Under the pieces are notes generated by a model that had not been told where the DNA came from, ran no database searches, and saw only the letters and a list, made by a program, of their open reading frames with translations. The translations under genes were made by a program, and so were the position numbers. A DNA stretch of 64,000 nt from Arenicellales bacterium (GTDB lineage: Bacteria; Pseudomonadota; Gammaproteobacteria; Arenicellales; JAJDZL01), in contig CBDAUN010000003.1 of NCBI GenBank assembly GCA_965200645.1, positions 519,718 through 583,717 of the forward strand. Direction: 5' to 3'. Below are positions 221 to 19,666 of the stretch, piece by piece; position 1 is the stretch's first letter, and the number at the start of each line of letters is the position of its first letter.

Positions 221-1024
221 TTAGTTCGCCAGGTCTGGTTCGTAGACAATAGTGGCAGGGGTGCCTGGGTAGATAAACCTATCCTCATAGTTCATACGAA
301 ATACATATGGGTAAGTCGATCCGATTTCTGACGGTGATATCGCAGGTTCTACTTGAGCAGAAAATAACCGATCTGAACCCTCAAAGCGGACGTTGACTTC
401 ACTCACATTCAACAATCCACGCATCACATCATAGGAAACTGGCACTCTAATAACCAGGTCTCCAAATTTTGCCAAAGTCATCAGCACCTGTGGGTCAATC
501 CGACGTGTTAAATACATCCCTTCTACAACGTCCATAGTTTCAACGTATGCATCAAATGGCGCCACTAACTTGGTGCGTTCTAACTTTACCTCAACAATTC
601 TTCGCTTGGCCTCCGCCTCGACCAGTTTCAAGCGAGTCTGTTTGACCTGTCGTTCTACAGATTCGAAGTCAGTCGTAGATAGTGACCCTCTATCATAAAG
701 TTCCAAATTTCTTTCATGTTCGGCTTCCAATTCCTGCAATTCGATCGAAATTCGATCGACTCTGGCTTGCTGAATTTTCAAGGCGGCCTGCTGAATCCTC
801 GAATCCAACTCAACTACTACCGCACCAGCCTCTACAATGTCACCAACTTTAGCATTTACGGCAACTACCTGCCCCTTTCCTGGTGCAACTATCTGAACTC
901 GTGTTCCAAAATCTACCATCCCATGAAGTTCGGCAGCTAAGATGTTGCCACTTACCAGTACTCCCGCCAAGAACGAAAATACGCACTTTAAAATCACTCG
1001 AGTCATTCTAATTTTAGTTTTCAT
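221..1024 (-). CDS. RND-type efflux periplasmic adaptor (membrane fusion protein)
   Basis: Signal peptide, lipoyl-like halves (APGKGQVVAVNAKVGDIVEAGAVVVELD ... LVAPFDAYV) flanking a coiled-coil hairpin; overlaps the end of the TolC-like gene. Confidence 0.85.
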   Translation of the reverse strand: MKTKIRMTRVILKCVFSFLAGVLVSGNILAAELHGMVDFGTRVQIVAPGKGQVVAVNAKVGDIVEAGAVVVELDSRIQQAALKIQQARVDRISIELQELEAEHERNLELYDRGSLSTTDFESVERQVKQTRLKLVEAEAKRRIVEVKLERTKLVAPFDAYVETMDVVEGMYLTRRIDPQVLMTLAKFGDLVIRVPVSYDVMRGLLNVSEVNVRFEGSDRLFSAQVEPAISPSEIGSTYPYVFRMNYEDRFIYPGTPATIVYEPDLAN

Positions 1025-2924: not shown

Positions 2925-4661
2925 TCAATTTCCCAATCCAGGATTTGCTCGATCGAGAATTAATTTTGGTTCGTTAATACTGTCAACACGAACAGTTTCT
3001 ACATTCCTAAGGTAATCTGCAACTACATCCCAGACCGGTGGGCCGGGAGAAACTTCTCCTACAGTCGCCCATCCACTAACCGAATACTCCTTACTCGCTT
3101 CGATCAACTCACCAGAATCCAACCGCATATCTGAAATTCTGCTGCCAAATCCCTGATGTGGATCTATCGTGTAACTGAATCCGGACACCCGTACCATATC
3201 GCCGCCCTGTTGGAAAAATGGATCGGGGTTAAATGAATTGTCAGCTACGTCTTCCAAAATCAACTTGAGAGTCTCGCCAGTCATGTTCCGAACATAGGTT
3301 TCGGGGTATGTCATTGCAGTCTGGGCCAGCACATCTTCCATTGTAATCATTTTCCCCGGCAAAACCGAAGTTCCCCATCGGAAGCCGGGAGACAGTGCAA
3401 TTTGAGCGTCACCAACTTGTCTAAGTGCCGCACAAGTCACTTCATCAAAAGATCCATTGAAATTCCCGCGTCGATACAACAATGACTCTGTGACTGCGAG
3501 TTCTTCATCCAGGCGGTCCGTATAGGGTGACCGAGACCGCGCAATGAATTGCGCCATTTCAGGATCCGGATCAAGTTGATTGCTGAAAATCGGCAGGAGC
3601 CGATACTTTACGTCCTTAACGCCACGGTCTGCGAACTCAATATCCGCAACACCCACGAATTTACCGTTAGAACCAGCGTTGGTAACTAGAGTAATACCTT
3701 CAGAGTTTTGCACCTCAATTGGAATCGGTACGGCATCGTGTGTATGACCGCCAAGGATGACATCGATCCCAGTGACCACCCTTGCAAGTTTGATATCCAC
3801 ATCCATCCCGTTGTGTGACAAAAGAATGACTGCGTCAGGTTTTTCATTCTCCCTGATCTTGGTGACCAACTCCTGCATTTCATCGGCTCGTATGCCAAAA
3901 GTCCAATCGGGTACATTGCGTCGCGGATTAGCAATTGGTGTGTACGGAAATGCCTGACCTATAATTGCAAGTTCATAGCCCCCAAGCGACCGCATCGTAT
4001 AAGGTGGAAATGCATGCCCAGTAAATTCGTCGTAGGCTGGCTTTTCGTCGAAAAGCGCATCTTCGGTCAGAAATATGTTTTGTGCAATAAACTCGCTGTT
4101 TGAAGCTGTTAAATTTGATTGAAGCTCTTCAGGTGTATAGGTAAATTCCCAATGTCCTGTTGCCAAGTCCACCCCTAGAATGTTATTTGCCTCAACCATT
4201 TCCATACCGCGGGTCCATAACGCAGTGCCACTACCCTGCCAACTATCTCCACCATCAAGCAATAGCGTTCGTTCCTCGCCATAACTTTGACGCAATTGGT
4301 TGACCAGCATTTTTAGATGGGCATATCCGCCAACCTTACCGTATTGTTCTGCAAGCTCAGCAAAGTTCAAATAGGTAAATGCATATGCTTCTGGAGTAGC
4401 AGCAGTGATGCCGTAGTAGTCAAACAGTGCCTTACCAACTAAGTGAGGCGGAAATCCCCAAGCATCTCCTACACCGAGGTTAATTTGAGGTTCACGATAG
4501 TAGACAGGATTTAACTGGGCGTGGGAGTCGGTAATATGCAGTAATCGAACACTGCCATAATTTTCTGAAGCATAGGCAGCTTCGATTGAAGAGGATGCTC
4601 CAATTCCAGCGACACTTGCTGCTGCAAGAACTTGCAGGAATTCTCGGCGATTAATGTACAA
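2925..4661 (-). CDS. soxB: Thiosulfohydrolase SoxB; true start probably TTG at 4661 rather than ORF-track 4733
   Basis: Tat signal INRREFLQ, LLHITDSHAQL metallophosphatase motif, LYRRGNFNG, 5'-nucleotidase-like C-terminal domain. Confidence 0.95.
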   Translation of the reverse strand: MYINRREFLQVLAAASVAGIGASSSIEAAYASENYGSVRLLHITDSHAQLNPVYYREPQINLGVGDAWGFPPHLVGKALFDYYGITAATPEAYAFTYLNFAELAEQYGKVGGYAHLKMLVNQLRQSYGEERTLLLDGGDSWQGSGTALWTRGMEMVEANNILGVDLATGHWEFTYTPEELQSNLTASNSEFIAQNIFLTEDALFDEKPAYDEFTGHAFPPYTMRSLGGYELAIIGQAFPYTPIANPRRNVPDWTFGIRADEMQELVTKIRENEKPDAVILLSHNGMDVDIKLARVVTGIDVILGGHTHDAVPIPIEVQNSEGITLVTNAGSNGKFVGVADIEFADRGVKDVKYRLLPIFSNQLDPDPEMAQFIARSRSPYTDRLDEELAVTESLLYRRGNFNGSFDEVTCAALRQVGDAQIALSPGFRWGTSVLPGKMITMEDVLAQTAMTYPETYVRNMTGETLKLILEDVADNSFNPDPFFQQGGDMVRVSGFSYTIDPHQGFGSRISDMRLDSGELIEASKEYSVSGWATVGEVSPGPPVWDVVADYLRNVETVRVDSINEPKLILDRANPGLGN

Positions 4662-4708
4662 GTGAACTGTCCAATAAATTACTGAAAATTTAAATGACCA
4701 ATTATTGC

Positions 4709-4734
4709 GATGGGCCCGACGATTCGGGCCCATC
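4709..4734. other. Perfect 11-bp GC-rich hairpin between soxK and soxB
   Basis: GATGGGCCCGA-cgat-TCGGGCCCATC read directly from the sequence; no strong U-tract after it on the minus strand. Confidence 0.8.
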
Positions 4735-4748
4735 TCAGTGATGTAAAA

Positions 4749-5126
4749 CTAACGAATCACCCTGCCTTTCCACAAACTGGATTCACGTTGGGCTTGAATC
4801 AGTGCCTGCTCGCCCTGAAGTTGTGCGGTGGCGACCAAACTCATCGCTTTTTCAAAATCTCCGTCCTCAGCGGACTTTTGCGCGCTTTTCAGCAATTTTG
4901 CTGTATCACGCCATTCATGACCAGAAGCCCTAGCAGCTTTGCGGGCCTCATTCGCCTTTGCAAATGCTGCATTGAATGTTTCGACATCGCTAGCGTGCAC
5001 CAAACTACTACCGACAAATCCAAATAGCGAAATGCCGGCTACAAATACGACCAAGCGTAAGCGTGTCATAGTTACGCAAATTAACGAACTTAGGTCCGTG
5101 AGTGCAGAAAAAATTCTATATTGCAT
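4749..5126 (-). CDS. soxK: SoxXA-binding protein (SoxK/SaxB-like)
   Basis: Small exported helical protein with EWRDT motif between soxA and soxB, the position SoxK occupies in SoxAXK clusters. Confidence 0.7.
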   Translation of the reverse strand: MQYRIFSALTDLSSLICVTMTRLRLVVFVAGISLFGFVGSSLVHASDVETFNAAFAKANEARKAARASGHEWRDTAKLLKSAQKSAEDGDFEKAMSLVATAQLQGEQALIQAQRESSLWKGRVIR

Positions 5127-5139
5127 GTGCCAACCCTCT

Positions 5140-5976
5140 CTATCGACGAACGCCAGGTCCGTTGAATTCTAAACCATTACTCATGTATGTCAGAAAATAT
5201 TCCAAGTTTCGATACTGTGCACTCTGTGCTTTAAACGACTTGGCTCGAACCTGAGAATTACAGCCGCCGAACCGTCGATGCAAAGTGCCAATTTCACCCC
5301 ACTTCAGACGGTATACTGGAAAATGACTTGGGTGTCCTAATGCAGGACTAAGCATTTCGGTTCGAACGGAACCTCCAGATCCACCTACGTGGCAGTCTGA
5401 ACATGCAAAATTCAACTGACCCCGCTTGGTGTAATAAAACTGTTTTCCCTGCTCATAAGCCTCAAGCGCTCGTGGGTCATCGGGAATGACTACATTGATT
5501 GTGTTTCCCCGAGATGTATATGCCATGTAGGCGGAGATAGCAGCTATGTCGCCCTTTTTATATTTTAAAGGTTTTTCACCATTTGCCTCTCGACACTGGT
5601 TGATAGCCAATTCCGCAGTAATGACCATCCCCTGCTCAAGGTCGAAATACGGATAATTTTGACGGATGCCAATGCCACCGTTTTCAAAGCAGTCGGCGTA
5701 AGTTTTCCCATTTGCGAAGGGTATTTCGAAAAGTTCCTGACCTTTGTCTACAGCAATTTCATAAGGTGGGAATTCTTCCAAATCAACCCATTGATCTCGA
5801 GATTGTTCATCAATAGAGTAGATTCCATTAACAAAGTCATCTTTTGGAGTATTCGGAAACTTGGTAAAGTAGTAATTTTCAAATGCTACCCGATCTTCTT
5901 CCGGTGAAGCTAAACCTGCTGTTGACGCAACAGCAATGAAGCATCCACCGATCAAGACCGACAATAATTTCTTCAT
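5140..5976 (-). CDS. soxA: Sulfur oxidation c-type cytochrome SoxA (single CxxCH)
   Basis: CSDCH heme motif, HRRFGGCNSQVRA active-site Cys segment, EYFLTYMSNG C-terminal motif. Confidence 0.95.
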   Translation of the reverse strand: MKKLLSVLIGGCFIAVASTAGLASPEEDRVAFENYYFTKFPNTPKDDFVNGIYSIDEQSRDQWVDLEEFPPYEIAVDKGQELFEIPFANGKTYADCFENGGIGIRQNYPYFDLEQGMVITAELAINQCREANGEKPLKYKKGDIAAISAYMAYTSRGNTINVVIPDDPRALEAYEQGKQFYYTKRGQLNFACSDCHVGGSGGSVRTEMLSPALGHPSHFPVYRLKWGEIGTLHRRFGGCNSQVRAKSFKAQSAQYRNLEYFLTYMSNGLEFNGPGVRR

Positions 5977-6020
5977 GCGATTATGGTCTCCTTTAATCGA
6001 TTGTGTTAATTGACAAGCGA

Positions 6021-6329
6021 CTACTTGATCTGAAAGGTCTGTTCGCCTGACCCGCCTTGATTGTCATTCCACGCGAAATCCAAGCTATCACCGCTCTGTG
6101 GTCCGCTTAATTTGAATGACAAATACGGGTTTTTGGAAATCGCAGGTCCCCAATGCGCACGAAACATCTCATTGCCGTTCCAACTGCAGGTTACCACTTG
6201 AATGTAATGTGCAGGAATCGGATTCCCGGTTTTTCGATCTTTGCGCTGTCCGGTCTCCATAGGATGCTTGATCAGAAGCTTTACTTCGGCTGCATCGCCG
6301 ATCATTCGAGCTTTTGCTTTCATTGTCAT
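6021..6329 (-). CDS. soxZ: Sulfur carrier protein SoxZ
   Basis: VKLLIKHPMETGQRKD and AISKNPYLSF motifs. Confidence 0.95.
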   Translation of the reverse strand: MTMKAKARMIGDAAEVKLLIKHPMETGQRKDRKTGNPIPAHYIQVVTCSWNGNEMFRAHWGPAISKNPYLSFKLSGPQSGDSLDFAWNDNQGGSGEQTFQIK

Positions 6330-6362
6330 ATTAATATCCTCAGATTGTCTATCAAATTTTCT

Positions 6363-6842
6363 TTAACCACCGCATCCGCCGATGGTGACCTTCACTTCAC
6401 GCACTCCCTTCAAAACCTGACCGTTCGCTCTAACAAGTGCGATCACATCAGAGGTTTTACCCATTTTGATTCGCATGGACACTTCCGGAATCGCACCAGG
6501 CTGTAAGTCGTAGGATGAAACCATCGGAGCTGGATTCTCGGGTACGAGAAGTGCGATAGATTCTACATTTTCAATATTCGCCGTCACCTTGATGGGGACA
6601 ACTGCGCCATTTTCTGCAATTTCTGGCGCTTTAATAATGATGCTTTCCGAAGCATCAACCACATTTTCTTCTCCAAATAGTGCATTTAAAGCCGAGTCAA
6701 GTTCCTCAGCATCAAATGCCGACTGAGGACGGGCTGCTGCAAAAGCTTGAGAGGTAAATCCCCACGAAGCCGCAACTCCTACCAGGCTTGCAGCGGCGGC
6801 ACCTTTGAGTACTACCCGTCTTTGCTGATCAAAATTGTTCAT
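6363..6842 (-). CDS. soxY: Sulfur carrier protein SoxY
   Basis: Tat signal (RRVVLK), APEIAENGAVVP, C-terminal VKVTIGGCGG swinging arm. Confidence 0.97.
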   Translation of the reverse strand: MNNFDQQRRVVLKGAAAASLVGVAASWGFTSQAFAAARPQSAFDAEELDSALNALFGEENVVDASESIIIKAPEIAENGAVVPIKVTANIENVESIALLVPENPAPMVSSYDLQPGAIPEVSMRIKMGKTSDVIALVRANGQVLKGVREVKVTIGGCGG

Positions 6843-6854
6843 ATGATTAGTCTC

Positions 6855-7232
6855 CTAGAGTGTGTAGACATATTCGGTGATTTTGTCGATTTCCTCCTCA
6901 GTCAAGATACCGTGTCGACCAAAAGGCGGCATCATCGAATTGGGGTTCGATGCAGTCGCATCGAAAATTCGGTCTCTGAGTTTCTGTTTATCCGGAAATC
7001 TACGTTCCATAAAGATAAGCGGCGGTCCATGGTTCCCGGGAAACTGCCCGTCATCCATAATATGGCAAGCCAAGCAGTTACCTTTGCGTCTATCAAAAGC
7101 AATCTTCTTGCCTTCAGCAATCACCTCAGGTGTTGCATCTGCCAAACCGATTTCGGGTCGAACCACCGAGACTGTGACCAACAGTCCGAAGATCAACATT
7201 GAAACCACTACTGATCCGTAAAATTTCTTCAT
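6855..7232 (-). CDS. soxX: Sulfur oxidation cytochrome SoxX
   Basis: KGNCLACH heme motif, NPNSMMPPFG. Confidence 0.95.
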   Translation of the reverse strand: MKKFYGSVVVSMLIFGLLVTVSVVRPEIGLADATPEVIAEGKKIAFDRRKGNCLACHIMDDGQFPGNHGPPLIFMERRFPDKQKLRDRIFDATASNPNSMMPPFGRHGILTEEEIDKITEYVYTL

Positions 7233-7360: not shown

Positions 7361-7546
7361 GCACGCAAATTGTAGGAAATGTATTTCAGTTGCAAAATTA
7401 AATTACATTCCGGAATTTTTGGTTCAAAGTTATTATATTTGACCAATGAATTAGAAAGTTGTTGCATATTACATTGAATTTATCAATTCATTAGAAATAT
7501 TTTTTAAATTACTTTTAACTGTAAATTTGAAAATAATTTTTAAAAA

Positions 7547-7897
7547 GTGACCAGTTCAGCAGAAAATTTAAATCAATTCAACTTCAGTACGCCAATACCA
7601 GTTGAAAAAATGAGAGAGTTGGCTCAGGAAGCCAGTAATGTTCTAAAGCAACTTGCGAATGAACAACGGCTGATGGTACTGTGTCATCTTGCTGAAGGAG
7701 AAAAGACGGTCACGGAACTTCAATCTCTTGTTGGAATGGAGCAATCTTCCCTATCACAACATCTTGCCAAACTTCGAAACGAAGGGATAATTCAAGCTAG
7801 ACGGGATTCACAATCCAAGTTTTATTCAATTTCTGATGAAAATGCACTGAAAATAATTGAACTTTTGCACAGTATTTACTGCACTCCTATGGACTAA
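7547..7897 (+). CDS. ArsR/SmtB-family sulfane-sulfur-responsive repressor (SqrR/BigR/SoxR-like)
   Basis: ArsR winged HTH (LANEQRLMVLCHL, SLSQHLAKLR) with the two Cys typical of the BigR/SqrR group (LCHL and C-terminal IYC); divergent from soxX. Confidence 0.85.
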   Translation: MTSSAENLNQFNFSTPIPVEKMRELAQEASNVLKQLANEQRLMVLCHLAEGEKTVTELQSLVGMEQSSLSQHLAKLRNEGIIQARRDSQSKFYSISDENALKIIELLHSIYCTPMD

Positions 7898-8063
7898 TAC
7901 CTGAATTACTATTGACCAATTCATCATCAGTCTTTTTCAATTTAGTACTATACCCTTTGCGTGCACGATTTTTGACTCCTTGCAACCCTAATGTTCTCCG
8001 CCTGAATAGCGTCTCCAAGCGGCTTCAGAACTAGGATAAGCATAAGTGAGGATGCACCTTTCC

Positions 8064-8334
8064 TGAGCCAGGCAAAAACTTGATCAGGATTACAGCCACT
8101 CCAACCGCGGCCAGTAATGTGTCCGTAATCCAGCGTTTGAATTGTCAAACTTTTCAAGATTTCCGATTTTCAATAAACAATCTCGGCGCGATGCCCAGCC
8201 TCGGTCTTTTCCAACTGTTCGCGGGTCACCAAACGGTGCTCGGTCGATTAAACTAAACGAAATACCGCCCGCGCTTGGTGTTCGGACATTCCGGTCCGAC
8301 TGGCTTCGTCGAAGAAATCACTGCGCGCTGTCAT
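8064..8334 (-). pseudogene. Decayed DUF1640/CCDC90-like coiled-coil membrane protein
   Basis: SD plus ATG at 8334; reads MTARSDFFDEASRTGMSEHQARAVFRLV*STEHRLVTREQLEK...Y*KSEILK, then frameshifts to FKRWITDTLLAAVGVAVILIKFL (TM tail); two in-frame stops and a frameshift. Confidence 0.5.
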
Positions 8335-8401
8335 AATATGTATCCTTCCATAGTTGATATAAGAGTTTGTAAGTCAATCAGTCTTCCTTTTTGATGATCT
8401 T

Positions 8402-8743
8402 CTATAGCGTAGGATCGTAGCGATAGAGATGCAGGGTTCGGTATCTGATCAGATCAAATGCTTCGCTAACCTGTTCAGGCAAGACATAAAATTACTCTTG
8501 CGGATGCACTGACTTCCCGAATCTGTTGGTGGTTGTTAGTTTGGACGACCACGCAGTCTCGAAGAAATGGTGTCGCAGGTTCTCGACTTTGGAGTGTTCC
8601 AGATTCTTCAAATTATAGGTCGCGACGATCTCAACCGCTGCACACAGGAATGTCGGGTCGTTCCTCGCGTCTGCAATCCTGCGATTAACGTCTTGAGATG
8701 TGACGCTCACTTTGTGCAGAAACTGATGCACTGATATTATTGG
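8402..8743 (-). pseudogene. C-terminal remnant of a GIY-YIG / T5orf172-domain protein
   Basis: PIISVHQFLHKVSVT...RRIADARNDPTFLCAAVEIVATYNL...NRFGKSVHPQE*FYVLPEQVSEAFDLIR...YRYDP; the frame continues through the TAA at 8492, which sits at the usually conserved Trp (PREWF). Confidence 0.7.
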
Positions 8744-8845
8744 AATTTATCCTTTTTGTGTGGTTGGAATTTTTTCTTGCAAACTGATATTCAATGTCAC
8801 CGATGCGAATAACTTGCTTGCAGTCTATTTACTTGATTGTTTTAT

Positions 8846-11800
8846 ATGGCTAATTTCGCGCCCATAGCGATAATCGGCGCGGCATGCAAGTTTCCCGGTG
8901 ATGCCAATTCACCAACTCAGTTTTGGCAAAACATCGTTTCTGGTTCAGATTCAGTTGAAGCAATTCCATCTGACAGATGGGATCCAAATTACTTCAACAA
9001 TATTCAATCGCAGTCGGCGGTCTTCGCCAAAACGGGTGGGTTCATTCATGACATATTTGACTTTGACCCAGTCTTCTTTGGAATTTCGCCCAGAGAGGCT
9101 GAAGATATTGATCCACAACAACGTTTATTACTTCAACTTGCATGGCGAACCAGTGAAGATGCTGCCACTTCGACTACGGACTTAAGTGCTTGCAGCACTG
9201 GTGTTTTTGTTGGTGTAATCAACCATGACTACGCCAGAGTTCTTCTTTCTGATGCTGATCATATCGGCCCACACACCGGACTGGGTCGGTCGGGAAGTAT
9301 TGCTGCTAACCGAATTTCGTATGCATTTGATTTTTGCGGGCCAAGCGTCGCTATAGACACCGCCTGCTCTTCTTCTTTAGTTGCAGTCGATAAGGCTTGT
9401 CGTGCTCTGCATACCGGAGGCTGTGATGTAGCATTTGCCGGCGGTGCAAACGCCATTTTGCTTCCAGAAAGCTACTTGGAATTTGGTCGTGCGCAAATGC
9501 TCTCTGCGACCGGACGATGTCGAGCATTTGACGCAAAAGCTGACGGTTTCGTACGAGCAGAAGGTGGAGGCATGATTCTGTTGAAGCGGTTGTCAGATGC
9601 GGTTGCAGACGGAGACCGAATCCGTGCGGTGATACTGGCAACAGTTGTTAATCAGGACGGCAAGACACCAGGAATTATGTCCCCCAGTGAAACTGCACAA
9701 ATCGAAATGATGAAACTAGCCATAAATGTAGCAGATATTTCTCCTTCTATCCTGGGTTATGTTGAGGCACATGGTACTGGCACCCAGTCCGGGGATGTCA
9801 TAGAAGCCAGATCCATCGGAACAGCTTACGGCCAAACAGGTGACCATCCTATATCAGTTGGGTCCGTTAAAACAAACATTGGACACACCGAAAGTGCTGC
9901 GGGAATTGCGGGATTGATTAAAGCAATGCTTTCGATAGAACACAACTGCATAGCGCCAAATTTGCATTTTAGTGAACCGAACTCTCAAATCAACTTTGAG
10001 CAATTGAATTTGCATGTTCCTTGCGAGTTGGAGGCTTGGCCAACTCCGAAGAGTCAACCACGTATTGCAGCAATAAATTCATTTGGATTTGGAGGTACGA
10101 ACGCGCACGCAATCATTCGACAATCGCCCTTGGATTTCACTCAGCGAAACCGCTCGAAGTACGAAAGTAATTTGATTCCTTTATCTACCCATTCTCAAGA
10201 GCATTTACACCCGGTTGAAAAGTTTATTTCAAAGCAAGTAACCGAAGGCGTTGACCCAAGAACCGTCAGTTTCGCTGCGCAACGAACTTCAAATTATCCG
10301 TACCGCAGTGCGTTCATTTTTACTGGCGCATCTGCATGCTCCAATCAGTCAAAACTTGATCGTGTCTCGCTTGCCAAATTAGTTGCAAAGACTAGTGAGA
10401 AATCACCACCCAAAGTGGCATTTGTATTTAGTGGGATTGCAGGAAACTGGCACAATACTGGTTGTCAACTATACCAAAGCAATCAAGTATTCAAGTCAGT
10501 TATCGACAATTGTGATGGAATTTTTCGTAACAGATTTGAAAACTCCATTGTTCGGGAGGTCTTGTCTAAAGGAAAGATACCCGACTCCCGCATTCATCAT
10601 CTGCACCCCCTACTCTTTTCGTTTCAAGTTGCTTTATTTGAACTTTGGCGTTCATACGGAGTTGAGCCAGATGTGATTTACGGACACAGTATTGGAGAAG
10701 CCGCCGCAGCCTGTGCATCTGGAGCAATGAGTTTGGACGAGTGTGCAAGAATCATATCAATCCGCTGTGATCGGTTTCAGCACTATGAAAATACCGGCAA
10801 GATGGTTGCGGCAGCAATGAGCTATGTAAATGCAGTTAAAGTTGTTGAAGGTTTCAGTAGAGAACTATTCATCGCCGGAATTAGCGGCCCAAATTCGGTC
10901 ACATTTTCAGGTACAAAGTCAGCAGCTAAGAAACTTATCGAACACCTGGATTTAAATAGGGTGTTTTATCGAGTTTTGGACATTACCGTTCCCTTTCACA
11001 GTCCACTGATTGACGAGGCTCGGTCTGACGTTCTCAGAGCCATTAACTTAGTGTCAACTAGAGACAAAAATAGTAACTGGGTCCCGTCCTTTGGAGACAC
11101 TAAATGCCAACATGATTTCGGAAGTTGTGAATTCTGGTGGAACAACTTCCATGCACCATTTGACTTTGCGCAGACGATCGAAACCACATACACGGAACCG
11201 ACTTTATTTGTTGAGGTTAGTCCTCATCCAAATTTGCTGCATGGCATCAATGAACAAATTAAATTTTTGAAGATTGATGGTATTGCTGTGCCATCACTGA
11301 TGAATAGTAACCAAGAGCTAACTGCATTGCACCACACGTTAGGTACTTTATATGTCAATGGAGTAAACCCAAAGTGGGGCAAGGTTGTTGCAAAATCAGG
11401 CCTTTGTGACTTACCAAAAGTTGAGTTCAATAAACAGCGATATTCAAAAGTCACAAAAAGCGGCCGAACCAATGTGGCGTTTTATGCAGCGACCAGTACC
11501 AGAACCCGCCATGAAGGAAAAGGGATCAGTCAGTCGTATCGGTTCAACTTAGAACACACTGATTGGCTAAGGTCTCATACTGTCCACAAAAAGATAGTCT
11601 TTCCGGCTGCCGGAATCATTGCAATTGCAAATGATTTTGCTCGAAAGCACTTTTTAAAAGAAAGGATTCAAATTCATAACCTTCAACTTAAAAAGTTGAT
11701 TTCGGTCTTCAATTCCGACATTGAAGTCCATTTAGAATTGAAGAATGACGAAAGAAACTTCACTATTACTTCAAATCAAGATGAATCAATCGAAAGTGCT

Positions 11801-14800
11801 TGTGGCGAGATCCTACAGAATTACTCCAAAATTGAATCACTGGACATAACTGCTGCTGCTAAGCGTTGTAACAGTCAAGTACAGTTAAAAGACTACGAGT
11901 CGCGCTTACGAAGCGCCGGATTCAACACTCAGGACGAAACATGCCAAGTCCTAGAAATTCGACATCACAACAATAAAGAGTGTTTTGCAAAAGTTGATCT
12001 CATGGCTACCAGTGAGTGCGACCATAAGTTGCTGATTCATCCTGGCCTCCTCGATACTTGCATTAGAGCCTCATCAATACAGTTAATGTTGAATGGTAAC
12101 TTCTTACCTGTAAGTATTGATAGAATTGCAATATTTAAGTCCGTTGGCAGACACTTTAGATGTCATGCTCACTTAGTCAAAAGATCAATTGCAGAGTCAA
12201 CGGTTGACGTCACAATTGTTGATTCCTCTGATGGTCTAGTTGCACATTTACAAGGTCTTACCATTCGCTATTTAAGTTCTACTTTAACCAAAGAAGAACC
12301 AACTAGTCAGCCTATAAGAATACTTGAACCGACTTGGAATCAACTTCAACTCGATGTTCAATTTGACTTGGAAGATTTAAATCTACGGTTGAATAAGAAA
12401 GCACACTATCTCTGTCACAAGTACAGTCGGGACACCTACTACAGTACCGTCGAACCACTACTAGACCAATTAACTCTTCATCATGTAGTTCAAGCACTTC
12501 ATTCCTTAGACTTAAAATTTGCTTCAGATGACAAATTCAAGATTGAGGAGATTGCCAAACAAATTAAGCTCCCCAAAGAACAAGTCAATCTCTTTCAAAA
12601 TTTATTCTATTTGTTGGCCAAGCATGGCAAAGTCAGAATCGAATCTGAGTTATGTCATGTATTGGAAGATCTCGGTAAAACCAATTCTCCGTTCAACTAT
12701 CGGAAATTCTTGTCGAATTCAGATACTTCGAACTACCTTGCAGAATTCACTTTAATTGAACGGTGTGGAAGTCACCTACCCGAGGTTCTGAATGGCTCAA
12801 CTACTGGATTAGAAGTGCTATTTCCTGATGGGTCAAGTGAATTGCTTGAGAACTTATACTACAGTTCCCCAACTTGCAGGATCTACAACGAGTTGCTAGT
12901 TGATGCAGTAACGCAATTTGTAGAGAGGTCGCCGCAGACGCATCGGTGCAATATTTTAGAAATAGGCGGTGGAACTGGCTCACTGCTTGCAGCGCTTGAA
13001 CCGCTCCTTCGTCTAGGAAAAGTTCGATATACCTTTACCGATATCTCCTCACAATTCGTGAAAAGAGCCAAAATTCGATTCTCACATTTAAACAGAGTTG
13101 AATTTAGTGGGTTGGATATTGATGCAGACCCTTCAGTTCAAGAATTTGAAGCTGAATCCTTCGATCTAGTAATTGCTTCTGACACACTGCACGCTACTCA
13201 CAGCATTCAGCACGCACTTCACAATGTAAAGAAATTATTGCGACCTGATGGCTATTTATTCTTTATTGAACTAACTAATCCACCAGATTGGACGCAGATT
13301 AGTTTTGCAATGCTAAGTAGTTGGTGGAACAATTCAGCAAGCAAAAATCGGAGTAGTTCTCAGTTCAGCACACGTGACGAATGGCTTGAACTCCTAAATG
13401 AAAGCGGATTTCACGAAGTATCTTCAATTACAGACCAAGATAAACATACGGGGTCTTTACATACACTTTTCATTTCAAGGGCAAATTCGGAAGATACTTT
13501 TTTACAACATACCGCCTCGGGGCAAGAAAAAAAGAAATGGCTAATTTTCGGAGACTGCACGTCATTTACACAATCGTTCACGCAACACTTTGGTGAAAAT
13601 CAATTCCACCTCATTCAAGCAGCAGATAATTTTTCAAAATCCAAATCTGGCTACACCATTAATTCCAAAACCTTAGGTGACTATGCCCTGCTGTTTAAGG
13701 CATTAGAAAAGGAAAATTATTTAATTGAAGGCGTGATCTTTCTCTGGACATTGCCTTACAACAATGGAGAATTTCAATTTAAAAATGAATTGAATCACCT
13801 GAAATCTATAACGCTAGCCCTATCCTACCTTTTGCAAGCGGCACAAAGTTCTTCCATTACATTGCCTCGGGTAGTTCTGGTGACGCAAGGCGTGAATAAT
13901 GTCGACCTTGATAAAACCAACCCTTTCAATAGTTTAACTTCAGTTTGTTATGCAATTTCCAAGACGATCAACAATGAATATCCAGCAACCAGTTGCGAAT
14001 TGATGGAAGTTAACTCATCAAACTCTGTATCTATTGAAAGAACTGCCGCATCTATCAAATCAAACGAGATTGATGACGAATCGTCACGCAGTTTTCAGTT
14101 GAAACTAACTCCCCCAAATACAAAATTACAAGCTGTGAATGACGACTATCCAGTTACACTTCAAAGCTCGGATAGTCGGCAGTTGGATGAGTTGGTATTC
14201 ACTAGGAAAGAACTCAAAGACCTTGGTAACAGAGAGATCAGAATAAAAGTTCATGCGTCTTCGTTGAATTTTCGAGATGTAATGATTGCGTTAGGTGCCT
14301 TACCAGATTCGGCGATTTCTAGTGGAAGAGCTGGTCGCTCGCTGGGGATTGAGTGCTCGGGAATTGTAGTCGGTATAGGCAAATTAGTTAGTCGATTTAC
14401 AGTTGGTGATCGAGTAGTAGCTCTTTCGCCAGGCTCGCTTTCAAGTTATGTGACAGCAAATGAACGCTTAGTTTGTTCGATTCCGAGTAGCCTCAGCTTC
14501 GAACAGGCTTGTGGGACACCAACTGTGTATGTGACTGCATTGCTGTGTTTACAGGCTATTTCTGATTTAAGCGCAAACAAGTCTGTTCTGGTTCACACCG
14601 CTTCAGGAGGAGTAGGACTAGCACTGATCAATCTACTCAAGTCTTACGATGCAAAAATTTTTTGTACAGCTGGGTCTGTTAAGAAACGGCAGTTTTTGAA
14701 ACGTCTAGGCGTTTATGCTGTCTTTGATTCTCGGTCTACACATTTCGCAAACGAAGTTCTTAAACTCACAAATTCCCGCGGTGCTGACATCATCATAAAC

Positions 14801-16192
14801 ACACTAGCAGGTAGTGCAGCTTATGAGAACATTCGAGCATTGACTATGGGTGGAACGTTCATTGAACTTGGCAAATTCAGTGAGCGTGAAGATGTAAAAA
14901 ATAAGTTACTGGTGGTCAATCCAACAGCTCGCTATCAGCTTATTGACTTGGATGCACAATGGAAGAGTGACGAAAAGAAAATTTCTTTACAGTTATTCGA
15001 GGTTATCCAGAAAGTTAGTAATGCTTCAATTCCTGCTCTACCGTATCAGACGTTTCCGGTTCATAGAATTACTCAGGCTTTCAAGACGCTAGCCTCAGCG
15101 AAACACATTGGCAAGGTGGTAATTGATTTTGAAGATTTAACTGAAATTCAAGCACATTCTCAACCCGTCATTGACTTCAGCAATGGACCGGTGTTGATCG
15201 TAGGTGGAACTCGTGGATTTGGGTTAGCTACTGCACTTTGGCTAGCGAAAAACGGCGCGAAATCTATCGCTTTGATGAGTCGCTCTAATGACAATTCTAA
15301 GCAGCTGACAAAAGCAGTTAACGAAATGGAACAGCTTGGAGTTTCGGTAACCGTTTCTTTGGTCAATATTGCCGACTTCGATGCGTTACAGTCGTGGCTT
15401 CACACCTATCAAGTAAATAATTCTCCAGTGAAATTCGTGTTTAACTGCGCCATGGTGATCGATGATCGCTTACTTTCAAATATTGATACTGAGAATCTCG
15501 ATAAGGTTTTCGAGCCAAAGATCAACGGCACTTGGAATTTATTCAATGCGTTAAAGCACAATGAGTTAGAAAAGTTTGTGATGTACTCATCCGTTACCTC
15601 TTTAATTGGGCCCGGCGGGCAAGTAGCCTATAGCACGGCTAATGCATTTCAAAATTCTTTTGCCAAATTCGCTCGAAATCACGAAGTTCCCGCAGTCTCA
15701 ATAATCTGGGGGGCTGTGTCAGACCACGGTTACGTTGCTGATATTCCTCAGGCAGTTCACACGATACAGCAAGAAGGATTTCAAGCTGTGGTGGCGGACT
15801 CTTATTTGAATCAACTGCCGGCAATTCTTGGTAATCCTGAAGTGACAGAAGTCGTAGTCGCTGCCGGTGATTCAATGGAAACTGCGTGGACTACCGGTAG
15901 TCTGTCTACACGACACAACTTAATGCCCACAGGCAATCCGAAGAATAAAAGTGAGTCTGGAAACAGCAAGAAATTTAGGAATTCTTCCCAGCGACTCATT
16001 TCCTGTATTGCAAGAGTACTTGACCTAAGTGAGGAGACCATTGACACTCGCAAACCGATTGTAGAATACGGACTAGACAGCCTACTTGCGGTGGAACTAG
16101 CCCATCTAGTCAAAGTTGAATGTGAAGTAGATGTATCGGTGAGTCAATTGCTCGAAAGAGTCACCATCGAAGACCTTTCTGCAACTCAATAA
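8846..16192 (+). CDS. Single-module type I PKS / FAS-like enzyme, KS-AT-DH-cMT-ER-KR-ACP (WcbR/RkpA/SupA-module-like architecture); start ATG 8846 or TTG 8837
   Basis: KS DTACSSS, HGTGT, NIGHTE; AT GHSIGE...R and VPFHS; DH WLRSHTVHKKIVFP and HPGLLD; MT ILEIGGGTGS and TLHAT; ER LNFRDV and HTASGGVG; KR GGTRGFG, VIDD, YSTAN; ACP GLDSL. Confidence 0.95.
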   Translation: MANFAPIAIIGAACKFPGDANSPTQFWQNIVSGSDSVEAIPSDRWDPNYFNNIQSQSAVFAKTGGFIHDIFDFDPVFFGISPREAEDIDPQQRLLLQLAWRTSEDAATSTTDLSACSTGVFVGVINHDYARVLLSDADHIGPHTGLGRSGSIAANRISYAFDFCGPSVAIDTACSSSLVAVDKACRALHTGGCDVAFAGGANAILLPESYLEFGRAQMLSATGRCRAFDAKADGFVRAEGGGMILLKRLSDAVADGDRIRAVILATVVNQDGKTPGIMSPSETAQIEMMKLAINVADISPSILGYVEAHGTGTQSGDVIEARSIGTAYGQTGDHPISVGSVKTNIGHTESAAGIAGLIKAMLSIEHNCIAPNLHFSEPNSQINFEQLNLHVPCELEAWPTPKSQPRIAAINSFGFGGTNAHAIIRQSPLDFTQRNRSKYESNLIPLSTHSQEHLHPVEKFISKQVTEGVDPRTVSFAAQRTSNYPYRSAFIFTGASACSNQSKLDRVSLAKLVAKTSEKSPPKVAFVFSGIAGNWHNTGCQLYQSNQVFKSVIDNCDGIFRNRFENSIVREVLSKGKIPDSRIHHLHPLLFSFQVALFELWRSYGVEPDVIYGHSIGEAAAACASGAMSLDECARIISIRCDRFQHYENTGKMVAAAMSYVNAVKVVEGFSRELFIAGISGPNSVTFSGTKSAAKKLIEHLDLNRVFYRVLDITVPFHSPLIDEARSDVLRAINLVSTRDKNSNWVPSFGDTKCQHDFGSCEFWWNNFHAPFDFAQTIETTYTEPTLFVEVSPHPNLLHGINEQIKFLKIDGIAVPSLMNSNQELTALHHTLGTLYVNGVNPKWGKVVAKSGLCDLPKVEFNKQRYSKVTKSGRTNVAFYAATSTRTRHEGKGISQSYRFNLEHTDWLRSHTVHKKIVFPAAGIIAIANDFARKHFLKERIQIHNLQLKKLISVFNSDIEVHLELKNDERNFTITSNQDESIESACGEILQNYSKIESLDITAAAKRCNSQVQLKDYESRLRSAGFNTQDETCQVLEIRHHNNKECFAKVDLMATSECDHKLLIHPGLLDTCIRASSIQLMLNGNFLPVSIDRIAIFKSVGRHFRCHAHLVKRSIAESTVDVTIVDSSDGLVAHLQGLTIRYLSSTLTKEEPTSQPIRILEPTWNQLQLDVQFDLEDLNLRLNKKAHYLCHKYSRDTYYSTVEPLLDQLTLHHVVQALHSLDLKFASDDKFKIEEIAKQIKLPKEQVNLFQNLFYLLAKHGKVRIESELCHVLEDLGKTNSPFNYRKFLSNSDTSNYLAEFTLIERCGSHLPEVLNGSTTGLEVLFPDGSSELLENLYYSSPTCRIYNELLVDAVTQFVERSPQTHRCNILEIGGGTGSLLAALEPLLRLGKVRYTFTDISSQFVKRAKIRFSHLNRVEFSGLDIDADPSVQEFEAESFDLVIASDTLHATHSIQHALHNVKKLLRPDGYLFFIELTNPPDWTQISFAMLSSWWNNSASKNRSSSQFSTRDEWLELLNESGFHEVSSITDQDKHTGSLHTLFISRANSEDTFLQHTASGQEKKKWLIFGDCTSFTQSFTQHFGENQFHLIQAADNFSKSKSGYTINSKTLGDYALLFKALEKENYLIEGVIFLWTLPYNNGEFQFKNELNHLKSITLALSYLLQAAQSSSITLPRVVLVTQGVNNVDLDKTNPFNSLTSVCYAISKTINNEYPATSCELMEVNSSNSVSIERTAASIKSNEIDDESSRSFQLKLTPPNTKLQAVNDDYPVTLQSSDSRQLDELVFTRKELKDLGNREIRIKVHASSLNFRDVMIALGALPDSAISSGRAGRSLGIECSGIVVGIGKLVSRFTVGDRVVALSPGSLSSYVTANERLVCSIPSSLSFEQACGTPTVYVTALLCLQAISDLSANKSVLVHTASGGVGLALINLLKSYDAKIFCTAGSVKKRQFLKRLGVYAVFDSRSTHFANEVLKLTNSRGADIIINTLAGSAAYENIRALTMGGTFIELGKFSEREDVKNKLLVVNPTARYQLIDLDAQWKSDEKKISLQLFEVIQKVSNASIPALPYQTFPVHRITQAFKTLASAKHIGKVVIDFEDLTEIQAHSQPVIDFSNGPVLIVGGTRGFGLATALWLAKNGAKSIALMSRSNDNSKQLTKAVNEMEQLGVSVTVSLVNIADFDALQSWLHTYQVNNSPVKFVFNCAMVIDDRLLSNIDTENLDKVFEPKINGTWNLFNALKHNELEKFVMYSSVTSLIGPGGQVAYSTANAFQNSFAKFARNHEVPAVSIIWGAVSDHGYVADIPQAVHTIQQEGFQAVVADSYLNQLPAILGNPEVTEVVVAAGDSMETAWTTGSLSTRHNLMPTGNPKNKSESGNSKKFRNSSQRLISCIARVLDLSEETIDTRKPIVEYGLDSLLAVELAHLVKVECEVDVSVSQLLERVTIEDLSATQ

Positions 16193-16243: not shown

Positions 16244-17308
16244 CTACTTCCAAATATCTACATCGATACCCTGTTCGATAAAGTGATCAGCACGATCGGA
16301 AATATAGCGCTGAAAATTAGCTTCAGTTTGGAACGACTGACTCGACACGTAAGCAAATAAAGACTGAGTATGAAAAATTTTGAACCAAGCTTCTGACCGA
16401 ATGACCTCTTTGCCCTGCGTATCGAATAGAATAATCGTGGGTGCGTAAGCTATACCGAGATTAGTAGCCCACTGTCGAGCTGTAGTCTTATTCCCATCAG
16501 GGGTAATTAGTTCAGTATTTTTCCACATATCCAACTGAACTACATCAAAAGCTGAGATTTCACTCCGAGTATCCGCATCGGTTAACACTAAAGAGTGCAG
16601 AGTTTCGCAATTCGGACAATCCGCTTGTTCAAAAAATACCGCGATTGGTTTACCTTCAGACTTGGACCGATCCAAGTTGTAAGGGAGTTCCATAAAGAAA
16701 GGTTCTGTAATTAACTTTCTCGTAGAAGGCGTAACTGGCTGGTTATTGCTGACATACTCTCGAAACGAAATTGACCGGTCTGCGCGATTCGCAACATACT
16801 CCAATGCTAATTTGAATTGCTGCGGAGGCAGGTAACCATTGAGTCGCAATACTTTGCTTGCCTGTTCATCGTAAAAAATCATGGTAGGCGTAAATTGCAC
16901 AGCTAATTCATCGGCAAACTCCTTTTCCGTCAGTTCCGTGCCATCCTCACGAGTCACTTCTCGGTCACCCCAAATATTTAATTCCACCACATCAAAGTTG
17001 CTACGAATGGACTCTACGATGTCCTTTTGACTGAGATTTCGCTCAACCAGGGCATTGCAATACGGACAACCGTCTTGATGAAAGAAGTAAATTAGCCTCC
17101 TCCCCTCTTGTGCCGCTTCTGCAACATCTTCGTTGATATCAAGAAAACTATCTTTGAACCACTCTGGATAAGTGGTTAACTTTGCACCAGAAAATGTTCC
17201 TTGAGAGGATGGTTCAGAACTGCTCTGAGCCATCAATTTGAAAGGTAAAGTAAACAGCAACAAACTGCAGGTACTAACAATTACTACTGATCGTATAAAA
17301 GCATTCAT
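16244..17308 (-). CDS. Tandem thioredoxin-fold (double SoxW-like) periplasmic protein
   Basis: Signal peptide; two Trx-like domains with CPYC and CPNC, each followed by a FTPT/YAPT cis-Pro loop. Confidence 0.8.
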   Translation of the reverse strand: MNAFIRSVVIVSTCSLLLFTLPFKLMAQSSSEPSSQGTFSGAKLTTYPEWFKDSFLDINEDVAEAAQEGRRLIYFFHQDGCPYCNALVERNLSQKDIVESIRSNFDVVELNIWGDREVTREDGTELTEKEFADELAVQFTPTMIFYDEQASKVLRLNGYLPPQQFKLALEYVANRADRSISFREYVSNNQPVTPSTRKLITEPFFMELPYNLDRSKSEGKPIAVFFEQADCPNCETLHSLVLTDADTRSEISAFDVVQLDMWKNTELITPDGNKTTARQWATNLGIAYAPTIILFDTQGKEVIRSEAWFKIFHTQSLFAYVSSQSFQTEANFQRYISDRADHFIEQGIDVDIWK

Positions 17309-18382: not shown

Positions 18383-19666
18383 ATGAGTGAAACCAAGCAG
18401 GAATTTCTAGAAAGAACAAAAGAATACTGGAATCCCGGAAAGACCGAGGATTGGCAGAACTTTGGTGTCGATTTGGTAATCGATCGTCGTGAAGGCTACT
18501 ATCTATACGACTTGGATGGTAAACGTTTGATTGATGTACACCTAAACGGGGGAACCTACAACCTGGGGCATCGAAATCCCGAAGTTGTGGCTGCTGTCAG
18601 AGAGGGAATGAAGTATTTTGACATCGGAAATCACCACTTCCCTTCCCTAATGCGTACTCATGTTGCGGAAATGCTGGCAAACTGTACACCGGAAGGACTT
18701 CAATACACGATTTATGCTTCCGGCGGAGGCGAAGCAATCGATATCGCGTTGAAGTGCGCCCGACATACAACCAAACGACGTAAGTTTATCTGCATCGACC
18801 ACTGTTATCACGGACATACCGGACTTGCAGTTCAGGTTGGAGACGAAAGATTCGCCAAACTGTTTCTAAGCGATGCTCCACAATCAGATGTAGTTAAAGT
18901 CTCATTCAACGACCTCGATGCCATACGACAGGAAATTAGAAAGGGAGATTCAGCATGTGTCATTATGGAAACCATTCCTGCAACCTATGGATTTCCGATG
19001 CCACAGGAAGGTTATTTAATGGAAATAAAGAAGGAATGTGAAAAGCATGATGTCCTCTACATTGCCGACGAGGTGCAAACAGGTCTGATGAGGTGCGGAG
19101 AGATGTGGGGGGTAGATACCTATGGCATACAACCTGACATTTTGGTTACAGGCAAAGGACTGTCGGGCGGAATCTATCCTATTGGCGCTGTCATCGTTAA
19201 CGAACGGGCGGGAGCTTGGTTAAAGGAAGACGGCTGGGGACACATGTCAACATTTGGTGGTGCGGAACTAGGATGTATTGCTGCTGCCAAAGTGTTGGAA
19301 ATTTCCCAGCGCCCAGAGGTCCGCTCCATGGTGCACTACATCGCCCAATATGTTCGAGATGGTCTAGAGCAACTCAAGGGTAATCATTCCGATTTCTTTG
19401 TTGGTATACGTCAACGGGGAGTTGTGATGGGACTGGAGTTCAACCATCCTCAGGGCGCCATTCATGTAATGAAGGCATTATTTGATAATGGAGTTTGGGC
19501 TATATTCTCCTCACTTGACCCAAAGGTATTACAATTTAAGCCCGGAATACTTGTTGATAAGGAACTTTGTGATGAAGTTCTGAATCGACTGGATTCTGCA
19601 CTGAGTAAAGCCCGCATGGTAGCACATAATTCCAATAATCAATCTGAGCTGGCTGATGCAGCATAA
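18383..19666 (+). CDS. Class III aminotransferase-fold PLP enzyme, probable aminopropanol-phosphate phospho-lyase (BMC signature enzyme)
   Basis: IADEVQTGLMRCG, PLP lysine in VTGKGLSGG, HLNGGTYNLGHRNP; next to kinase and SDR; SD GAGGAGG before the ATG. Confidence 0.75.
   Translation: MSETKQEFLERTKEYWNPGKTEDWQNFGVDLVIDRREGYYLYDLDGKRLIDVHLNGGTYNLGHRNPEVVAAVREGMKYFDIGNHHFPSLMRTHVAEMLANCTPEGLQYTIYASGGGEAIDIALKCARHTTKRRKFICIDHCYHGHTGLAVQVGDERFAKLFLSDAPQSDVVKVSFNDLDAIRQEIRKGDSACVIMETIPATYGFPMPQEGYLMEIKKECEKHDVLYIADEVQTGLMRCGEMWGVDTYGIQPDILVTGKGLSGGIYPIGAVIVNERAGAWLKEDGWGHMSTFGGAELGCIAAAKVLEISQRPEVRSMVHYIAQYVRDGLEQLKGNHSDFFVGIRQRGVVMGLEFNHPQGAIHVMKALFDNGVWAIFSSLDPKVLQFKPGILVDKELCDEVLNRLDSALSKARMVAHNSNNQSELADAA

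Follow-up and report, generated by a model that had tools for sequence, protein, structure and literature searches.

A single-module, probably C-methylating polyketide synthase as a core gene of one Arenicellales family, and its soxR neighbourhood

What does a lone, highly reducing polyketide synthase do among genes for sulfur oxidation? The question is raised by a window of 64,000 nucleotides from an Arenicellales bacterium (GenBank assembly GCA_965200645.1, contig CBDAUN010000003.1, positions 519,718 to 583,717 of the forward strand), the stretch of DNA analysed here, which holds one gene for a single-module type I polyketide synthase (PKS). A sequence-only reading of this DNA had placed the gene between sulfur-oxidation genes, and rightly so: it is flanked by soxX-Y-Z-A-SAXB-soxB with soxR and, at its other end, by the gene for a SoxS-like double thioredoxin. 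It had further described the PKS as an orphan in an unusual context, making methyl-branched chains by iteration. We show here that the PKS is inherited vertically and belongs, in single copy, to the core genes of one Arenicellales family, and that a soxR gene about 100 bp 5′ of it on the same strand is the ancestral and still prevalent layout. The enzyme is of a known type; what is new is its conserved regulatory neighbourhood, into which, in the window's own genome, 950 bp of gene debris have intruded. We consider it likely that the PKS is an iterative, fatty acid synthase (FAS)-like, highly reducing synthase of methyl-branched acyl chains, with a possible regulatory tie to soxR.

Orthologues were searched for in 60 related genomes; the window's family is represented by 36 genomes in three genera (G000 denotes the window's genome, G001 and G002 its two congeners). 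All 36 carry a PKS orthologue, 35-45% identical to the window PKS, and none was found in 25 genomes from 13 other families of the same order. The “orphan” is thus a family-wide core gene with conserved neighbours. The family orthologues are typically full length (2450-2500 aa) and stop-free, the exceptions being G033, G030 and G034; in G030 and in G034, an assembly that is 63% complete, the copies are truncated or fragmentary. A search of G000 returned the window gene as its sole type I PKS. In a tree of ketosynthase (KS) domains, in which the mistranslated rows L049 and L076 (branch length 10) were disregarded, the family is represented by 16 sequences, which come together in one long-stemmed clade (bootstrap 83, SH-aLRT 99); within it the window KS groups with those of its two congeners (97/99); a single family clade with the congeners together fits vertical descent. 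The nearest relatives outside this clade are only 28-37% identical, and several of them are modules of multi-gene PKSs. Base composition gave no reason to suppose a foreign origin, the 42.7% GC of the gene being unremarkable beside the 45.6% of the genome. A 230-aa KS amplicon from UniParc (P0138, with an early UniParc number) nests in the window's genus-level clade; its ends resemble the usual degenerate KS primers, and PCR surveys have probably sampled this lineage.

Two further assemblies deserve mention as observations in their own right. In G033 (7% contamination) the PKS at C1:2645558-2652963 is split into two open frames, covering residues 5-867 and 900-2446, as the result of a frameshift or of a disruption of the gene. 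Two complete copies of the soxR-PKS-thioredoxin arrangement are present in G035 (10% contamination).

The surroundings of the PKS are as informative as its distribution. In 30 of the 36 family genomes a soxR orthologue was found, one match per genome, 98-130 bp upstream of the PKS and on the same strand, and 29 of the 36 have soxZ on the other strand at a distance of 1.2-8 kb from the PKS start, in line with the window, where the whole sox operon (2925..7232) is divergent from soxR-PKS. The pairing of soxR with the PKS is kept in G009, G013, G022, G032, G033 and G035, where the sox operon is located elsewhere. The genes of G009 and G022 run leuC-leuD-soxR-PKS, after which comes the thioredoxin gene in convergent orientation, and in G000 leuCD lie just past the sox block; from these two arrangements we conclude that the sox block was excised in G009 and G022 and that soxR stayed with the PKS. 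No soxR orthologue was found in six family genomes (both g2 species, G004, G019, G025 and G034), and in G003 soxX and the PKS are immediate neighbours in divergent orientation. The position beside soxR and the sox genes is therefore a conserved ancestral arrangement and not the displaced island that an “unusual context” would imply.

On the other flank, the distance of the double-thioredoxin gene from the 3′ end of the PKS is at most 150 bp in about 20 genomes and at most 12 kb in about 30; three genomes have the gene elsewhere, and three lack it. Copies with in-frame stops occur at G014:C1:587258-588234 and G008:C1:1289887-1290786, and are apparent pseudogenes, or else products of recoding or assembly errors. 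As the gene is displaced, absent or stop-bearing in several genomes, we rejected the double thioredoxin as an obligatory partner of the PKS.

The regulator gene next to the PKS encodes a protein of the sulfane-sulfur sensor type. Among solved structures it best matches the persulfide sensor SqrR (6O8L, E 6.5e-25), with HlyU and BigR next, and both Cys46 and Cys112 align to the sensing cysteines of SqrR, numbered Cys41 and Cys107 in the literature. Against the NCBIfam BigR equivalog it scores 88.4 bits and does not reach the cut-off of 155; judged by these scores, it is a relative of BigR and not a BigR orthologue. The window regulator thus resembles SoxR, SqrR and BigR in its predicted fold (SqrR structures 6O8K-6O8O), in both sensing cysteines and in its orientation divergent from a sox operon; the known SoxR/SqrR regulons, however, consist of sulfur-oxidation and detoxification genes, whereas the sensor gene of the window sits by a PKS. 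We found no report in the literature of a PKS linked to a SoxR/SqrR sensor or directly downstream of the sensor gene. SoxR-type proteins have been shown experimentally to be sulfane-sulfur-responsive repressors of sox genes (PMC10451225), and these repressors leave the DNA once a sulfur bridge links their two cysteines (PMC10451225, PMC13122954).

Within the short soxR-PKS spacer of four relatives, neither a terminator nor a sigma-70-like promoter was predicted, and an alignment of 10 such spacers contained no conserved block that could represent a conserved operator or RNA element. G000 is the only one of 31 loci in which the spacing exceeds about 130 bp. Its spacer has no credible gene and contains fragments of at least one dead gene: a C-terminal remnant resembling T5orf172/GIY-YIG proteins at 8495-8746 (minus strand; a weak Pfam match, E 0.0045) and, seen by eye, a short coiled-coil-type fragment at about 8170-8373 (minus strand). 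The debris insertion may have weakened the link between soxR and the PKS in G000. We also observed a 34-nt motif (core TTGACCAAT[G/T][A/C]AT) upstream of soxR in two tandem copies 40 nt apart (7438-7471 and 7478-7511), with a third copy just past the soxR stop codon (7911-7944); the motif is not visible in the soxR-PKS spacer of G002, and it may be a candidate operator or promoter element.

The architecture of the PKS (Table 1) comprises KS, acyltransferase (AT), dehydratase (DH), C-methyltransferase (cMT), enoyl reductase (ER), ketoreductase (KR) and acyl carrier protein (ACP) domains, together with a region that resembles a structural pseudo-KR. The reading frame runs without a stop from an ATG, and an alternative start is possible at a TTG (8837) upstream. 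All the catalytic residues of the PKS listed in Table 1 are at their expected positions, as the sequence-only reading had stated of the catalytic motifs; the coordinates in that reading are exact, too, and the cMT carries an N-terminal helical lid. Pfam detects no further domain C-terminal to the ACP, where the polypeptide terminates. The enzyme has what defines type I iterative, FAS-like, highly reducing PKSs, namely KS, AT, DH, ER, KR and ACP on one polypeptide with intact catalytic residues, and the absence of PKS genes upstream or downstream of this single module implies either iteration or a single extension. Given that the polypeptide begins at the KS and ends at the ACP, priming and release need other proteins. 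The nearest solved KS-AT structures are 7ZMA, CurL (4MZ0) and a Mas-like enzyme (5BP1), and the nearest NCBIfam models are those for generic type I PKSs and for the mycobacterial Pks2/Mas type, all far under their cut-offs (951 bits for Pks2, with a cut-off of 2400).

Table 1. Features of the PKS locus in the window, with the identity of the G000 and G002 proteins or domains
Feature	Positions	Strand	Residues and motifs	Identity G000 vs G002	Basis
soxB	2925-4733	-		75%	TIGR04486, 806 bits
SAXB (SoxAX-binding protein)	4749-5126	-			
soxA	5140-5976	-		85%	
soxZ	6021-6329	-			
soxY	6363-6842	-			
soxX	6855-7232	-			
soxR, ArsR-family SqrR/BigR/SoxR-type sulfane-sulfur sensor	7547..7897	+	116 aa; Cys46, Cys112	77%	Pfam HTH_5, SqrR match
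soxR-PKS spacer	7898..8845		948 bp, gene debris; ~100 bp in relatives		
Single-module type I PKS, KS-AT-DH-cMT-(pseudoKR)-ER-KR-ACP, without release domain	8846..16192	+	2448 aa	44% overall	Open reading frame, Pfam, catalytic residues
KS	8861..9970	+	6-375; C174/H309/H347, DPQQR at 89, HGTGT at 309	65%	Pfam
KS-AT linker			378-489		Pfam
AT	10421..11353	+	526-836; GHS615IGE, R640, VPF717H; malonyl-type signature	48%	Pfam
DH	11516..12280	+	891-1145; H911, P920, D1070	27%	Pfam
cMT	12410..13414	+	1189-1523; LEIGGGTG, H1449 (LHAT), E1475	45%	Pfam
Structural pseudo-KR region	13538..14023	+	1565-1726	24%	PF21394 match, under cut-off
ER	14228..15127	+	1795-2094; GGVG 1921-1924	48%	Pfam
KR	15188..15721	+	2115-2292; K2225/S2248/Y2262/N2266	54%	Pfam
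ACP	15989..16183	+	2382-2446; LDS2412L, phosphopantetheine Ser2412	43%	Pfam
Periplasmic double thioredoxin, SoxS/DsbD-gamma-like, convergent with PKS	16244..17308	-	354 aa; signal peptide, CPYC and CPNC	63%	

The motifs also bear on the chemistry. In alignments to solved structures, the AT signature GHSIGE/VPFH corresponds to the GHSVGE/HAFH of the malonyl-specific CurL and is unlike the GHSQGE/YASH of the methylmalonyl-specific DEBS and polyene ATs. The best solved match of the cMT is the CurJ C-MT (5THY, E 2e-50), with the histidine of LHAT and the downstream glutamate aligned, and this His/Glu pair is invariant in the family alignment. A malonyl-type AT together with an intact CurJ-type cMT suggests that the methyl branches of the product should derive from S-adenosylmethionine (SAM) and not from methylmalonyl-CoA. 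The earlier proposal of an iterative methyl-branching synthase is thus upheld at the level of sequence by the malonyl-type AT, by a cMT like that of CurJ and by a single module that has no thioesterase (TE); the part of it that spoke of an orphan in an unusual context is not.

The PKS diverges far faster than its neighbours, yet its chemistry is kept: between G000 and G002 it is 44% identical, compared with 75-85% for SoxA, SoxB and SoxR. The fastest-evolving domain is the DH, with 14-27% identity within the family, and within one genus the DH and pseudo-KR regions are both less than 30% identical. All catalytic residues are nevertheless invariant across the aligned family orthologues (n=14), which are 34-44% identical overall; such invariance at so low an identity argues for purifying selection on catalysis.

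Activation, priming and release have to be sought elsewhere in the genome. No TE, phosphopantetheinyl transferase (PPTase), acyl ligase or capsule gene lies within 10 kb of the PKS, as had been noted from the sequence. The same account had also reported no aminotransferase nearby, which is literally wrong: a class-III aminotransferase gene (18383-19666) lies, with genes for a short-chain dehydrogenase/reductase (SDR) and an APH-type kinase, 1.2-3.5 kb 3′ of the PKS. These three genes are not beside the PKS in G001 or G002, and we rejected them as off-loading or tailoring partners. The suggested search of the genome for a PPTase partner did find one: the only PPTase detected in G000 is a 256-aa, two-lobed enzyme of the Sfp/AASDHPPT type, encoded at C3:1437904-1438674 (minus strand; L001:1390-2160), about 0.9 Mb from the PKS. 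No AcpS was detected in G000, so one enzyme presumably serves both AcpP and the PKS. Pseudomonas aeruginosa likewise has PcpS and is not known to have an AcpS-type gene. G000 also has a type II FAS: FabF, AcpP and FabG are encoded at about 35.8-38.3 kb of the window, and C2 carries a FabB-like gene; we therefore rejected the PKS as a replacement of the primary FAS, and, as the only type I PKS in a genome with a type II FAS, it is best regarded as an accessory lipid synthase.

As we infer it from the sequence, the enzyme would work in the following way: the AT would load malonyl units, and the KS would extend a short or FAS-derived acyl primer; the cMT would put the methyl group of SAM on the beta-ketoacyl intermediate in some or all cycles; full reduction by KR, DH and ER would follow; and a saturated methyl-branched acyl chain would end up on the C-terminal ACP, which would itself have been activated by the sole Sfp-type PPTase. 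As the polypeptide has no TE, reductase (R) or condensation (C) domain, release would fall to an unlinked enzyme, a hydrolase or an acyltransferase, that removes the chain, most plausibly into envelope lipids. The PKS is probably co-transcribed with soxR or under a control region shared with it, and by such coupling lipid synthesis may follow the availability of reduced sulfur. A stronger form of this proposal, in which SoxR, through co-transcription or an operator in common, directly gates the PKS family-wide and methyl-branched envelope lipids are made specifically during the oxidation of reduced sulfur, seems to us rather doubtful.

Several known systems share features with the PKS. Sup (“sponge symbiont ubiquitous”) PKSs (SupA; Fieseler et al. 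2007, Hochmuth et al. 2010), which come from uncultivated symbionts, are portrayed, in the passages of PMC4245539, PMC3908369 and PMC9426513 that deal with them, as small, single-module enzymes with a methyltransferase (MT) domain and DPQQ/HGTG motifs, for which methyl-branched fatty acids are proposed as products (PMC4245539, PMC3908369); the phyla from which SUP-like clusters have been reported include the Proteobacteria (PMC9426513). Compared by these published descriptions, the window PKS is alike in being stand-alone and single-module, with the MT between DH and ER in the order KS-AT-DH-MT-ER-KR-ACP, and its KS keeps DPQQR and HGTGT, the targets of the DPQQ/HGTG primers. It differs in that neither a SupE-like permease (SupE has 557 aa in the table of PMC3908369) nor another sup partner is adjacent to it in G000, G001, G002, G009 or G022, its conserved partners being soxR and the thioredoxin gene instead. 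In the KS tree, which is without an authentic SupA, the long-stemmed Arenicellales clade stands apart from all other PKSs retrieved, and protein-database searches with the full-length PKS, at KS-amplicon length and with the cMT region returned no match named SupA. On its sequence features we call the window PKS Sup-like, and do not call it a Sup member.

SwfA of sponge symbionts (Della Sala et al. 2013) has no MT, its motifs read DPQ(I/V)R and HATGT, and SwfB is encoded just after it (PMC3908369). SwfA and the window PKS are both mono-modular, FAS-like and without a TE; the window PKS differs in its cMT, DPQQR and HGTGT, and no reductase-sulfotransferase gene (SwfB) is present beside it. Swf-type genes occur in about half of the family and not in G000, and in the KS tree the Swf-like KS domains of the relatives are a distant outgroup to the window KS. 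In G002 a swf-type pair encodes a 2393-aa KS-AT-DH-ER-KR-ACP protein and then an 841-aa reductase-sulfotransferase; two swf-type clusters were seen in that genome (L118:6535-16189 and L119:6633-16424), each with a PKS of about 2370-2390 aa and a thioester-reductase-sulfotransferase of about 835 aa.

Mycocerosic acid synthase (Mas) and the Mas-like Pks2 and Pks5 of mycobacteria are iterative single-module KS-AT-DH-ER-KR-ACP enzymes without a TE that make multi-methyl-branched fatty acids and depend on a separate off-loading acyltransferase, and Mas-like enzymes rank among the best solved-structure and NCBIfam matches of the window PKS. Mas is described as drawing on methylmalonyl-CoA for its branches and as lacking a cMT; the window PKS, by contrast, has a malonyl-type AT (VPFH) and a SAM-dependent cMT, and its genome is without a PapA5-type condensation enzyme. 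The fungal highly reducing PKS LovB, which is also among the solved matches, and CurJ have the same domain order, including the cMT; the window PKS differs from them in being bacterial and stand-alone, with a functional-looking ER, and in having neither an enoyl reductase as partner nor a C domain nor modules further downstream.

Several observations weigh against an iterative synthase of methyl-branched chains that is tied to soxR. The fast divergence of the PKS, above all of its DH, could reflect relaxed constraint. In H. denitrificans the set of SoxR-controlled genes did not include soxR itself (PMC10451225), so that co-transcription with soxR alone need not mean induction by sulfur; moreover, the six genomes without soxR beside the PKS indicate that the coupling is not obligatory, and in G000 the debris and a weak terminator-like hairpin (8714-8731) stand between the two genes. 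Finally, no release enzyme was identified in the genome: the search for a type II thioesterase elsewhere in G000 gave just generic alpha/beta hydrolases, which match the TE model weakly, at the margin of its cut-off, and the search for a PapA5-like acyltransferase gave no condensation-family gene.

The first alternative keeps the same enzyme and changes its control: the soxR/sox neighbourhood would be mere inherited order, dating from a single insertion of the PKS between soxR and the soxS-like thioredoxin gene in the family ancestor, and the PKS would use its own promoter to make a housekeeping branched lipid independently of sulfur. It draws on the six or seven genomes in which the sox block has gone from the PKS and the PKS has stayed, on the leuCD flanks in G000 and in G009/G022, which point to simple excision of the sox block, on the genomes that lack soxR beside the PKS, on a soxR-PKS spacer that is not conserved in sequence, and on the intact PKS of G000 despite 950 bp between it and soxR. 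Mere inheritance of gene order, however, sits less easily with the observation that on separation soxR remains with the PKS and not with the sox operon, with a spacing of about 100 bp that is held in 30 genomes while the outer flanks differ even among congeners, and with the lack of any predicted terminator or promoter in the spacers of the four relatives. We hold this alternative to be possible, though somewhat unlikely.

A specialised metabolite, such as a polymethylated alkyl chain or a derivative of one made with unlinked tailoring enzymes, for interaction with an animal host or a competitor, is a less probable product than a bulk membrane lipid. In its favour, a PKS that diverges so rapidly beside slower neighbours fits specialised metabolism better than core metabolism, family relatives carry further PKS clusters, including the swf type, and PKSs of the Sup type count as hallmark genes in sponge microbiomes (PMC4245539, PMC9426513). 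Yet the genomes inspected (G000, G001, G002, G009 and G022) have no linked tailoring, export or resistance genes, and a strict single copy in every family member resembles a physiological function; we regard this explanation as unlikely. It is more improbable still that the PKS of G000 is silent or being lost, the insertion having severed its promoter: the debris spacer is unique to G000, the hairpin lies within it, and the genome is the smallest of the family (2.6 Mb), but a 7.3-kb stop-free frame with intact catalytic residues argues for ongoing selection. A displaced synthase of capsular-polysaccharide lipid anchors of the WcbR/RkpA type is barely credible, even for a TE-less single-module PKS in a Gram-negative bacterium, since G000 has no gene of the KpsC/KpsS family (no PF05159 match) and no second PKS, so that the displaced known system named as a refutation in the sequence-only reading is not found there, since the orthologues in G001, G002, G009 and G022 have no capsule genes beside them, and since the window PKS has a cMT, which published WcbR/RkpA comparisons do not list.

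A few observations concern the wider surroundings. Past the conserved PKS block the flank is a variable region: beyond the thioredoxin gene we saw the BREX genes for BrxL, PglZ and a methyltransferase in G001 (L003:20275-27377) and an AbiEi/AbiEii pair in G009 (L027:14944-16744). At the other end of the locus, the minus-strand genes at 221-2920 of the window, which come after the sox operon, encode a thioredoxin, then an outer-membrane factor (OEP) and lastly a short adaptor of the HlyD type, an order that recurs in G001 and G002; beyond the adaptor lie EamA, HAD and MFS genes, with no inner-membrane pump gene adjacent. In G002, a gene at L002:19931-23335 (minus strand) has a 1134-aa product with matches to two kinds of family, squalene-epoxidase/FAD-binding and squalene-hopene/oxidosqualene cyclase; it has the appearance of an epoxidase fused to a cyclase, and a sterol-type pathway in Arenicellales is possible.

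In conclusion, ever since the mid-2000s the KS sequences surveyed in sponge microbiomes have been dominated by Sup-type single-module, MT-containing PKSs, with their products, producers and role unproven, and the lineage described here is a clean case of such an enzyme, with genomes that are closed or nearly so, one vertically inherited copy, a normal FAS and one Sfp-type enzyme. The position of the PKS behind a sensor with a known and easily supplied ligand, sulfane sulfur, makes both its product and its trigger directly testable. If the link to sulfur is true, it would add a lipid-remodelling arm to the SoxR/SqrR regulons, and gating by SoxR, if true, would provide the first physiological trigger and a defined bacterial producer for the Sup-type PKSs of sponges.

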